Positions 1,883 to 3,349 of a DNA stretch of 34,139 bases are shown piece by piece. Source of the stretch: Chloroflexota bacterium (GTDB lineage Bacteria; Chloroflexota; Anaerolineae; B4-G1; SLSP01); the NCBI GenBank assembly GCA_009908585.1, contig JAAAOZ010000333.1, positions 1-34,139 of the forward strand. Reading direction: 5' to 3'. The notes under the pieces were generated by a model. That model searched no databases. It saw nothing but the letters and a program-made list of their open reading frames with translations, and was not told the DNA's origin. The translations under genes and the position numbers were made by a program. The first letter of the stretch is position 1. Each line of letters opens with the position of its first letter.

Positions 1883-1938
1883 GGCTACGCACGGGAAAAG
1901 CTGTGCGGCGCGTCGATCCTCGCTCCTCCTGCACCAGC

Positions 1939-1972
1939 AAAAAAAGCCGTGACAAGCTAAGCCTGCCACGGC
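1939..1972 (-). terminator. Intrinsic terminator overlapping the stop of the SLOG-like gene
   Basis: Minus strand GCCGTGGCA-loop-TGTCACGGC (9 bp with one G-T pair) followed by T7. Confidence 0.6.
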
Positions 1973-2655
1973 TGCGAGAACGGGACGCCCACCTGCGCGC
2001 GCCGGCACGGAACAAAGCGCTGCGCCTTGACCCACGGGCCGCCAAGACCCGTGGCGACCCAAATGCCGCCCCAGTGACTGGGCAACGCAACCCGATGACT
2101 GACCCCGCAGGCAAAGACCACGACCGGCAACCCCAGCGCGACCGCAAACGCCAGCGTGGACCAGGTGCCAGAGCCAAAGCCCCCGAAGCACCGCACCGAG
2201 GAACGGGACGGCACCAGGCGCTTGCCGGAACGCGGATGCACCGGGCAGGGCGAAGAGACGAAGCCGACCACGCCCGCGCGCCCCCCGGACTGCTGCACGG
2301 CCCGGACCATAGCGGCGGAACGCTGCGCCAAGGCTGCTGCGGGACGCGGCCCGGCCAACCGAGAAACGGGAACCGGCGCCGGGCGAAAGCGGCCCGTGAC
2401 GGGCGACTGCTGGAACGGACGGTAGGAGACCCGATGCTGGCGCTGCGGACGAAAGACGCGAGGCTGAACCCCGCACTGCACGGCCCGCGCCCGCACGAAA
2501 GCGTCAGCGCCCGCAGCGTCACCGACCGCGACCCCACGGCCCGAGCGGACAACGGACTGCACGACCGCCCCGACCAACGGAGAGAACTGGGGCCGCAGAC
2601 TACGCGAGCCTGTGAACCCGACCAACGGACTGGAAACGGCTGCCTGGCTACCCAC
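1957..2655 (-). CDS. DprA/SLOG-like Rossmann-fold protein, extremely adenine-poor coding strand (possibly degenerate)
   Basis: Frame of the 345-aa track ORF. Motifs LVGFTGSRSL, VAVGDAAGADAF, GFGSGTWSTLAFAVALGLPVVVF. The proposed GTG start at 2655 follows AGGGGG. The ORF being intact is uninformative because stops cannot arise in A-free sequence. Confidence 0.45.
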   Translation of the reverse strand: MGSQAAVSSPLVGFTGSRSLRPQFSPLVGAVVQSVVRSGRGVAVGDAAGADAFVRARAVQCGVQPRVFRPQRQHRVSYRPFQQSPVTGRFRPAPVPVSRLAGPRPAAALAQRSAAMVRAVQQSGGRAGVVGFVSSPCPVHPRSGKRLVPSRSSVRCFGGFGSGTWSTLAFAVALGLPVVVFACGVSHRVALPSHWGGIWVATGLGGPWVKAQRFVPCRRAQVGVPFSQPWQA

Positions 2656-3022
2656 GGCCCACCCCCTGACCCACCAGCCACAGGACACACGACCGCACCA
2701 CAGAAGCGTGACACGGCAACGGAGCACACCAACAGCCCAACGCCACGGACTGCCCCGCCGCCACCGCCTGAGCCAAGGACTGAAGCTCATCCCACGCCGG
2801 AGACGACTGCCCGGCCAACCCGGCCTGCACCACACCCCACAACCAACGCCGGTACCGCTGAATGACGACCGCCCGCGACCCGTGACGCCCCACCCGAAAG
2901 GGATTACCCAACGCCGACCCCTGCCACCCCCGACACGACCGAGCCACGTACCACACGGACGGATCACCCGCCTGCAAACTACGGACGTTGACAACAGACA
3001 CAGAACCTAAAGCAGACACCAC
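2648..3022 (-). CDS. DUF4326-family protein, adenine-poor coding strand
   Basis: Motifs VWYVARS..GNPFRVG..VIQRYRRWL..VALGCWCAPLPCHASVV match the DUF4326 signature as I remember it. GTG start at 3022 or 3019, after GGGGG. Confidence 0.5.
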   Translation of the reverse strand: MVSALGSVSVVNVRSLQAGDPSVWYVARSCRGWQGSALGNPFRVGRHGSRAVVIQRYRRWLWGVVQAGLAGQSSPAWDELQSLAQAVAAGQSVALGCWCAPLPCHASVVRSCVLWLVGQGVGRG

Positions 3023-3094
3023 ACACCCCCTGACAAAGCTAAATGAACGAAGGCTGAAACGAGGCCCGAAAGCCCCGCCAGCGCCCCCGAAGCG

Positions 3095-3349
3095 GCACAC
3101 GAGGGCCAGGCCGCCAAAAAAGCCGCCGCCCCTGCCCTGGCGTCATCTAATCTCCAAAGCCAGGACAGGAGCGGCGGCTTCCCCTACTGGGGCGCCCTGC
3201 GGAAGGGAGCAAAAACCCGGCGATGGGAGCCGAAGGCATCAGCACCGGCGCTCTCCTAATCCTCCAAGCCGGTAGCTGGGCCGGAGGCTACAACCAGGCA
3301 GACGCGGGGTTTTTGCGGACTGGAGCAGGGGAAGCCTTGCGCCGTGTGC
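3095..3349 (-). ncRNA. Structured three-way-junction leader element, copy A (core)
   Basis: Closing stem GCACACGAGGGCCAGGC / GCCTTGCGCCGTGTGC, P2 hairpin, and P3 with base GCAAAAACCCGGCG / CGCGGGGTTTTTGC; homologous to 21855-22083 and 25544-25869. Confidence 0.5.

Follow-up and report, generated by a model that had tools for sequence, protein, structure and literature searches.

What could keep a natural protein-coding operon almost free of one of the four nucleotides over its whole length? The question is raised by a DUF4326 gene and a DprA/SLOG-like gene (SLOG-like gene from here on) that lie side by side in a 34,139-nt sequence from a Chloroflexota bacterium (Anaerolineae; B4-G1; SLSP01; assembly GCA_009908585.1, contig JAAAOZ010000333.1, positions 1-34,139), the whole of which is called the window below. 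A first-pass annotation of this DNA had described a strand-specific loss of adenine (A) across both genes, and had proposed as its cause either cumulative A-to-G change or selection against adenine-containing targets. The comparison of related loci presented here showed, at the level of sequence, that the sense strand of the whole unit is kept adenine-free by continuing nucleotide-level purifying selection, and that this selection has also restricted the encoded proteins to the ten residue types that can be specified without A (F, L, S, C, W, P, R, V, A and G, referred to as the A-free alphabet). Adenine survives where it is irreplaceable, namely in the stop codons, in part of the start codons, in a single Asp codon and in the Asn, His and Tyr residues of DUF4326.

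Composition of the operon and identity of its products

The unit consists of the following features, listed together with the edge of a second copy:

1957-2655, minus strand: SLOG-like (DprA/SLOG-like) gene, 232 aa, GTG start, TAG stop
2648-3019, minus strand: DUF4326 gene, 123 aa, starting at the second GTG, TAG stop
3020-3119, minus strand: A-poor 5' untranslated stretch, 4 A in 100 nt (3 in CA, 1 in TA), with the Shine-Dalgarno site AGGGGG at 3026-3031
1938-1973, minus strand: intrinsic terminator, 13-bp stem followed by T7, overlapping the stop codon of the SLOG-like gene
34072-34139, minus strand: 3' end of another copy of the SLOG-like gene, truncated at the edge of the window, from the repeat 33862-34137 / 1747-2022

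The 3' end of the DUF4326 gene overlaps the start of the SLOG-like gene by 8 nt, and AGGGGGTG(N4-6)GTG precedes both genes, as it also does A-free genes of the related loci L008, L014, L015, L017 and L018. On the plus strand, the unit appears as a T-poor zone at 1938-3119, with T at about 5% over 2000-3100, and normal A content is back after the terminator. Across the whole window, the AT skew reached its maximum of 0.59 at 2001-3000; outside this T-poor zone it stayed at or below 0.28, and outside the block 1500-4000 at or below 0.25. When sense-strand composition was measured for the 34 translated open reading frames (ORFs) of the window, A made up 6.2% of both the DUF4326 gene and the SLOG-like gene, compared with 15-31% in the 32 other ORFs. 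Within the DUF4326 gene, A accounted for 4.6, 12.6 and 1.3% of the first, second and third codon positions, respectively, which indicates that it is kept mainly where the amino acid depends on it; in the SLOG-like gene, 16 of the A-containing codons are CAG.

The counts given in the first-pass annotation were largely reproduced. A recount of T per 60-nt line returned identical values (1, 4, 2 and 4, with 9 in a control line), the eight overlapping ORFs of 89-345 aa are present, and the 232-aa product contains no Glu or Asn, two Lys and one Ile, with Leu mostly encoded by TTG (TTG 6, CTG 4, CTT 1). The description of the region as stop-free in all six frames was overstated, as the frames contain 2, 5, 11, 4, 1 and 4 stops across 1960-3010. 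The second copy reported from 34072 lies at the end of a stretch, 33862-34137, that is 94% identical to 1747-2022, and this gene copy leaves the window at the right edge.

The DUF4326 assignment was borne out by a match to Pfam PF14216 (60.2 bits where 25 is the cut-off; E=3.2e-16; alignment over positions 12-80 of the 82 in the profile), a family that was present in 45 of 45 DUF4326 homologues; P0090, a protein 93% identical to that of the window, shares its start codon. Residues invariant in comparison with members of normal composition are kept (Y26, S37, N41, G97-C98-W99-C100, C105 and H106), and the conserved motif residues, including the Asn of GNPF, CWC, the His of PCH and the Tyr of YVGR, are present. 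The A-depleted DUF4326 members form a small clade nested among many homologues of normal composition.

Conserved motifs of the SLOG-like family are LVGFxGSRSL, GRGVAVG[CD]AxGAD, RS, GSGTW and GLPVVVF, with one near-invariant Asp and conserved Gly-rich loops. The window protein had no match in Pfam, PHROG or PADLOC; homologues of normal composition missed the DprA (PF02481) threshold, scoring 18-21 bits against a cut-off of 29.6, and matches to ShosA and PsyrA were weak. An AlphaFold (AF2) model based on 67 homologues reached a predicted local distance difference test (pLDDT) score of 87.5 and a predicted template modelling (pTM) score of 0.82. Its top PDB matches in Foldseek were ShosA (8zva), DprA (5mll, 3uqz, 4ljk and 3maj), MCP of the LOG/MCP type (2iz5 and 6y01), the SLOG domain of ThsA (7uxs) and TM1055, with moderate scores (probability 0.98-1.0, E 7e-4 to 4e-2, template modelling (TM) score 0.30-0.45). 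The model and these matches point to a three-layer Rossmannoid fold like that of solved SLOG members. The DprA/SLOG signature recognised by the first-pass annotation thus appears to hold at fold level only, through AlphaFold, Foldseek and the sub-threshold matches of homologues, and not as a Pfam or PHROG match of the window protein.

Adenine exclusion across related loci

Among 89 word-indexed homologues of the 232-aa protein, nearly all draw 85-100% of their residues from the A-free alphabet, and many contain exactly one Asp and one Met. A HMMER profile search retrieved 1,577 SLOG-like representatives at E <=1e-3. At the DNA level, the comparison covered 17 loci in species genomes and 9 on viral contigs, to which L001, L021, L022 and L032 were added by protein look-up. 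In 25 of the 26 scan-fetched loci, A made up 0.2-6% of the gene, within surrounding DNA of 14-30% A and 43-70% GC; of the look-up loci, which stand outside this tabulation, the relaxed L001 and L021 have 5.2% and 9.6% A, and L022 has 0.8%, with no A percentage tabulated for L032. Strict members encode proteins that use the A-free alphabet for 95-100% of their residues. The window copy is a relaxed member (87%) of an Anaerolineae-associated clade, and L004, L005, L001 and L032 are its relatives (60-88% identity).

Hosts and carriers include Anaerolineae and Chloroflexia (Chloroflexota), Acidobacteriota, Competibacteraceae (Gammaproteobacteria), Desulfobulbus and Leptospirillia. The loci are carried by phages, prophages and elements resembling integrative and conjugative elements (ICEs), in at least five phyla; L022 and the relaxed phage copy L021 are accompanied by phage tail and capsid genes. 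SLOG-like homologues of normal composition (40-53% identity) are interspersed with strict A-free ones, and since normally composed homologues of both families exist, mixed with A-free ones, an external pressure is indicated rather than a requirement of the enzyme. Many public entries of the family (P0137, P0046, P0148, P0151, P0158 and others) are 300-540 aa long, though the domain has ~175 aa; family entries are thus often over-extended at the N terminus because gene callers read through stop-poor upstream genes.

The A-free block matches the predicted transcription unit. In strict members, the A-free stretch runs from the untranslated stretch at the 5' end (5'UTR) to the terminator, and only the start or stop codon and one Asp codon keep A. 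L006 has 3 A in ~710 nt (in ATG, the GAT Asp codon and TAA), including an A-free 5'UTR of ~170 nt. L014 carries four consecutive A-free genes with GTG starts after GGGGG-type Shine-Dalgarno sites; its A's are limited to stop codons, the Asp codon and two other places, its terminator hairpin is A-free, and ordinary A-rich sequence follows within 6 nt of the T-run. The pattern is repeated in L015, L018, L008, L022 and the window, and A-free terminators close the units in L014, L015, L018 and L022. The upstream co-transcribed genes of A-free units belong to other, unrecognised families: Pfam gave no match for nine further A-free ORFs of related loci, where the DUF4326 of L005 alone was recognised, and the clustering of stop-to-stop ORFs was confounded by the open frames. 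Because these genes of other families share the A-freeness, the trait belongs to the operon and not to one protein family, as is also indicated by the nesting of the A-depleted DUF4326 clade among normal members. Further A-depleted genes with GGGGG-type Shine-Dalgarno sites and GTG or ATG starts were observed nearby but outside the SLOG operon (L016 5121-5715, minus strand; L017 6620-6930; L013 1421-1910; L011 8981-9470), so that A-depletion extends to further gene families.

A trait common to all co-transcribed genes would be expected if an operon product attacked adenine in RNA or single-stranded DNA (ssDNA) and the A-free message escaped it, just as toxin mRNAs can lack their own cleavage sites. 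LOG-clade SLOG enzymes do act on AMP-type substrates (PMC9503650), SLOG/LOG enzymes cleave adenine N-glycosidic bonds, and the near-invariant Asp and the Gly-rich loops would be in keeping with such an activity. We nevertheless regard self-immunity as quite unlikely, given that the normally composed homologues in both families indicate that the activity as such needs no A-free message, and that the other genes of the element would be attacked as well. Furthermore, the SLOG-like family is without the LOG catalytic motif, PGGxGTxxE.

Closely related strict loci bear on the question of selection or mutation. L014 and L015 differ at 14, 7 and 58 first, second and third codon positions, respectively (49 synonymous and 16 non-synonymous codon changes), and this concentration at the third position shows that they are real genes whose protein product, read in the assigned frame, is under purifying selection. 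None of the 79 substitutions between L014 and L015, and none of the 132 between L015 and L018, involves A. In fourfold-degenerate boxes, A occupied 51 of 3,727 third positions (1.4%) in 29 A-depleted genes, compared with 217 of 2,198 (9.9%) in 12 GC-rich control genes of the window. Synonymous sites have therefore been heavily turned over without any substitution involving A, which argues that its exclusion is actively maintained and rules out a single past hypermutation burst.

These data also bear on the first cause put forward by the first-pass annotation, a cumulative strand-specific A-to-G change through deamination of ssDNA or a hypermutated RNA or cDNA intermediate. A mutational process, whether transcription-coupled or ssDNA adenine deamination or an adenine-mutagenic reverse transcriptase with self-homing like that of diversity-generating retroelements, would have the merit that cDNA made from the mRNA is hit over exactly the transcribed region, on one strand and at A only. 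The window gene does resemble an A-to-G-converted version of the low-GC backbone, with A 6, C 22, G 44 and T 28 in DUF4326 against A 27, C 18, G 25 and T 30 in a neighbour. Yet in AT-rich hosts T takes the place of A as much as G does, and the L006 gene is composed of 0.2% A, 25% C, 36% G and 38% T within a locus of 27% A. Relative to normal DUF4326 homologues, the replacements conserve chemical character (K to R; I to V/L; T to S; Y to F; also E to A/S/Q), differ from the A-to-G set and are not transition-driven; substitutions between the window and L004 (AG 9, AC+AT 10) likewise show no A/G excess, so that an excess of A-to-G was seen neither in amino acid replacements nor in pairwise substitution spectra. 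C is not depleted, contrary to what generic deamination would give, the preferential removal of GA described below is opposite to ADAR-type preferences, and the A-free state is family-wide, recurring in unrelated hosts of five phyla.

The machinery for such a process was also looked for. No RVT family was found among the Pfam hits of 33 window ORFs or in the precomputed annotation of L001, L002, L021, L022 and L032, and neither a template repeat/variable repeat pair nor a deaminase was found in the window or these five Pfam-annotated loci. The stretch 2023-3100 has no repeat partner in the window, the module being touched by a repeat (the 94% copy) at its 3' end only. Diversity-generating retroelements share with the present loci a strand-specific, adenine-specific and transcript-delimited sequence change, but they come with a reverse transcriptase, a repeat pair and accessory genes, none of which is seen here, and they diversify a variable region of ~100 nt, whereas here the loss of A is kept over long divergence. 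Taken as a whole, we hold a mutational origin to be very unlikely.

RNA structure was considered as the selected property and rejected: minimum free energy z-scores of A-free units against dinucleotide shuffles ranged from -1.75 to +1.63, and their paired fractions (0.59-0.72) match those of control genes (0.58-0.69). In L006, an inverted repeat (9758-9820 / 9860-9922, 63-nt arms, 79% complementary) pairs an A-containing upstream arm with the start of the A-free 5'UTR. A universal long hairpin between an A-rich upstream arm and the A-free 5'UTR was discarded, as it is clear in L006 and weak or absent elsewhere; similar but much shorter pairings occur in L018, L022 and L008.

Context of the residual adenines and candidate agents

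The adenines that remain are unevenly distributed with respect to their 5' neighbour. In the window clade, 49 of 69 residual A's stand after C and 5 after G, though G is the commonest base; rho(GA) and rho(CA) were 0.19 and 2.45, compared with 1.15 and 1.04 in control genes, and the leftover A's of this relaxed clade are tolerated after C, mainly in CAG Gln codons. The pattern persists where the choice of neighbour is synonymous: A at codon position 1 follows G in 5 of 85 cases where 33 were expected (P=4.5e-12; 290 against 294 in control genes), and NGA codons (GGA, CGA) account for 2 of 51 third-position A's where 27.7% was expected (P=2.5e-5), both P values overstating independence because the pooled loci are related. 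The phage locus L021 has 84 A's, with GA found 2 times against 26 expected. The stop codons are TAG in 16 cases, TAA in 5 and TGA in 4, and the Shine-Dalgarno site avoids GA by using AGGGGG instead of GGAGG. GA therefore seems to be the core of the avoided context in A-depleted operons.

From an exclusion that coincides with the transcript, is sensitive to the 5' neighbour and comes and goes among close homologues, we infer an external, host-dependent agent that reads sequence on RNA or on the template strand. Effectors of this kind have been described: CmdT ADP-ribosylates adenine at N6 within the GA dinucleotides of single-stranded mRNA, Shine-Dalgarno sites among them (PMC11618068), and Csx1 cuts single-stranded RNA after A (PMC4712672). 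For Csm6, no usable dinucleotide specificity was given in the papers found. The explanation we favour, to which we assign a probability of roughly 0.45, is long-term selection for a transcript that offers no substrate to adenosine-directed RNA effectors, with products that would serve in counter-defence, the agent being postulated from the pattern of avoidance. The second cause put forward in the first-pass annotation, selection against adenine targets including A-specific RNase sites, is the one towards which the evidence points, because A is excluded at synonymous sites despite turnover, the A-free block equals the transcription unit and GA is avoided most.

The DUF4326-SLOG pair forms a small operon, carried here by a mobile element and elsewhere by phages and prophages; under the favoured explanation, the selected property would be an mRNA without a target for adenosine-directed immune effectors such as CmdT-like enzymes and A-specific HEPN RNases. 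The operon could then be translated while other messages are disabled. As to the products, both DUF4326 and SLOG domains have been predicted from virus gene neighbourhoods to process immunity-made ADP-ribose derivatives in counter-defence (PMC9503650). With less confidence than for the message itself, the products might be a SLOG/DprA-like protein that binds nucleotides or ssDNA and a DUF4326 protein of the rhodanese-phosphatase type. They may convert or sequester derivatives of ADP-ribose or of nucleotides, or act as mimics of a DprA-like antitoxin. It is conceivable, though we would put it forward only tentatively, that A-free or minimally GA-free operons are a general counter-defence strategy based on 'substrate-less' mRNAs, with the SLOG-like and DUF4326 proteins acting as erasers or neutralisers, for example by removing N6-ADP-ribosyl-adenosine. 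A survey that mentions DarT thymidine ADP-ribosylation (PMC11833690) mentions no eraser of adenine-linked RNA ADP-ribosylation.

A total exclusion of A over exactly the transcribed region, together with GTG starts, would equally be accounted for if elongation had to proceed without ATP when defence depletes or deaminates ATP or dATP (RADAR, Detocs- or Cap17-type ATP nucleosidases, ShosT-like purine toxins). The best structural match of the SLOG-like protein is ShosA, an antitoxin whose partner toxin disrupts purine metabolism. However, under a limited supply of ATP the neighbouring base should make no difference, yet synonymous sites avoid GA and tolerate CA, and L021 contains 84 A's but 2 GA. 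Moreover, ATP would still be required for translation, and with G as the commonest base there is no general purine thrift. ATP-independent transcription is, in our view, improbable.

The selected property might instead lie in the DNA, as a T-free template strand on which thymidine-directed attack or modification could not block transcription of the operon. Candidate agents are DarT2-type thymidine ADP-ribosylation in ssDNA, the hypermodified thymidine of phage DNA and pyrimidine dimers. The same boundaries, those of the transcribed region, and the same strand specificity are predicted, and the encoded domains are predicted ADP-ribose processors. GA avoidance on the sense strand is TC avoidance on the template, comparable with the Thermus DarT motif TNTC. 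However, the known DarT motifs (TNTC, TTT/TCT, TTTW) need two or three T's, and avoiding them would not demand that isolated T's be purged to 0.2%. L021 avoids GA yet retains a AAAAAAAA run (TTTTTTTT, T8 on the template), the coding strand is itself very rich in T (up to 38%) and would remain open to damage, and prophage and ICE copies replicate as ordinary host DNA. A T-free template fits less well than a substrate-less mRNA, and we consider it unlikely without dismissing it.

Neighbour dependence and boundaries also bear on the avoidance of restriction or methylation targets. Confining A to one strand excludes every palindrome that contains A/T, as well as Type I, Type III, Dam and CcrM sites, which is logically true for the A-free block; the element encodes its own N6-adenine methyltransferases, and leading or early regions are known to deplete targets (PMC13478746). 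Protecting ~1 kb would, however, leave the rest of the element cleavable, the boundaries follow the transcript, 5'UTR and terminator included, and not a DNA feature, and the difference between GA and CA is not predicted. As the main cause, target avoidance of this type has very little to recommend it.

Besides the relatedness of the pooled loci, several points weigh against a substrate-less mRNA as we propose it. Every RNA-level argument is mirrored on the T-free template strand. Residual A's show no GA avoidance in L020 (12 against 11 expected), L027 and L029, and strict members remove CA and TA too, so that a GA-specific enzyme alone cannot explain them; because some lineages have no GA bias and strict members purge every A, the loci seem to range by degrees between the GA-free and the A-free state. 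The transcript ends were inferred from sequence alone, and no canonical promoter was found for the minus-strand DUF4326-SLOG operon. Finally, the profile of the large search was built mostly from A-free members, which biases upward the A-free share of its 134 new top hits (91 with at least 85% of the A-free alphabet and 25 normally composed; 59 have exactly one Asp).

Genomic neighbourhood and relation to known systems

Neighbouring genes in the window encode ArdC, RadC, DdrB, two FtsK-like ATPases, a ParM-like partition protein, two nucleases of the staphylococcal nuclease-lamin-tail domain type and N6-adenine methyltransferases; the region is a mobile element. No near-identical DNA was found by megablast of window positions 1-12000 against phage and plasmid collections, and Rfam at gathering thresholds and a tRNA scan returned nothing. 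A near-consensus sigma-70 promoter at 4121-4149 on the plus strand (TTGACA, 17-nt spacer, TACAAT) would drive the divergent HTH_17 (excisionase-like) gene at 4169.

Upstream of the operon lies one of several structured leaders:

3085-3400, minus strand: leader copy A, structured, GC-rich, not itself depleted of A (13%), with a terminator-like hairpin directly upstream of the A-poor stretch
21850-22175, minus strand: leader copy B, upstream of a normally composed 94-aa gene that starts at GGAGGTGTGAAATG
25535-25960, minus strand: leader copy C, upstream of RadC-ArdC
9590-9935 of L032: a relative of these leaders

The leaders of the window are ~330 nt long, paralogous and placed ahead of three operons (DUF4326-SLOG, the 94-aa gene and RadC-ArdC). 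They have a nested architecture, with an outer stem GCACACGGCGCAAGGC / GCCTTGCC-CTCGTGTGC, an inner stem GCAAAAACC / GGTTTTTGC and, at the end, a 19-bp hairpin with a CTTT(T)AT run behind it. The presence of G-U pairs speaks for folding in the RNA sense, and there is no Rfam match; the leader may be an attenuator or a cis-regulatory RNA. Its GGCGCAAGGC motif was also found upstream of A-free units in L001, L008, L010 and L012. The first-pass annotation had read the Shine-Dalgarno/start region of the DUF4326 gene as an A-purged version of a leader junction, and AGGGGGTGTGTGGTG at 3031-3017 indeed aligns with GGAGGTGTGAAATG downstream of leader copy B.

Repeats link the two ends of the window: 1-136 and 31408-31543 are 96% identical, and 1747-2022 and 33862-34137 94%. 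The recurrence of left-part repeats near the right end points either to a tandem pair of related elements or to a segmental duplication. Two paralogous staphylococcal nuclease-lamin-tail genes (13685-14830 and 29745-31199, minus strand) share 74-87% DNA identity over several segments, and each is followed by a palindromic terminator, AAAAGCGCCCTGGA..TCCAGGGCGCT, which is also found at 7-38, 26087-26118 and 31414-31445. At 32392-32589, three tandem 66-nt units, the first and third with the same sequence and the second 67% identical, sit inside overlapping ORFs, with one strand rich in TGC/CAC (Cys/His-like) codons. The T-poor stretch at 5600-6000 was set aside as separate from the A-depletion, being the sense strand of a plus-strand gene (5236-6507) with GGCCACGGCCACGGCC-type repeats and a low-complexity, Ala/Thr-rich product.

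Several known systems resemble the A-free operons in part. Target-site avoidance, as of restriction sites or palindromes in the early or leading regions of phages and plasmids, or in ACA-less mRNAs that resist MazF, likewise frees a sequence from the motif of a hostile enzyme, with depletion at synonymous sites that is concentrated in early or counter-defence genes. In the present loci, too, depletion is found at synonymous and non-coding positions relative to flanking genes (1.4% against 9.9% A at fourfold third positions, G/A codon junctions 5/85, NGA 2/51, A-free 5'UTRs and terminators). However, target-site avoidance removes a motif of 3-8 nt, whereas here, with a putative hostile enzyme, an entire nucleotide has gone from the whole unit, untranslated regions included, and the proteins have been recoded into about ten amino acids. 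A conjugative leading-region island with ssDNA (Frpo-type) promoters, where anti-defence genes stand behind long hairpins that form in the transferred (template) strand, was also considered. ArdC and RadC neighbours and three structured leaders are present, but several G-U pairs of the leader helices in the RNA sense would become A-C mismatches in the plus strand; no relaxase or oriT was seen, and the A-free module is also found in tailed phages.

The viral SLOG-DUF4326 ADP-ribose modules, to which Macro and NADAR may be added (Iyer, Burroughs and Aravind 2022, PMC9503650), contain the same domain pair, occur in mobile elements and viruses and are predicted to act in counter-defence. They are fusions or neighbourhoods of normally composed proteins for which no nucleotide exclusion was reported, and the SLOG of the A-free operons is a separate DprA/ShosA-like family without a Pfam model. 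DprA, ShosA (the antitoxin of the Shosta defence system) and PsyrA are the best structural matches (TM score 0.40-0.45, probability 1.0) and have a similar N-terminal GSR-type strand-loop motif, but their identity to the window protein is ~11-14%, and the window gene has neither a threshold HMM match nor a partner toxin gene. Engineered reduced-alphabet proteins, among them enzymes of 9-13 amino acid types, are likewise folded and apparently functional with about ten residue types. The A-free family differs in being natural, widespread and maintained, and its residues, those of the A-free alphabet plus one Asp, are set by codon composition and not by design or prebiotic arguments. No description of adenine-free or GA-free prokaryotic genes was found in the searched literature; the DUF4326-SLOG pairing is a known association, and the exclusion of a whole nucleotide and the natural ten-letter proteins appear to be undescribed.

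If confirmed, these operons would provide the first example of natural protein-coding transcripts that do without a whole nucleotide, and they would make it testable which immune effectors act on mRNA adenosines and how far such effectors have spread outside E. coli. They would offer a route to the function of the DUF4326 and SLOG counter-defence domains, and a signature (at least 400 nt with at most 1% A on one strand) by which new counter-defence genes could be mined, with a warning for gene callers that all six frames are largely open. The maintenance of a fold with about ten amino acid types would likewise become testable, as nature offers hundreds of cases, for which there is a confident model of the Rossmann-like type, with only one acidic residue. 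The same principle could guide the design of synthetic mRNAs resistant to nucleases or ADP-ribosyltransferases.

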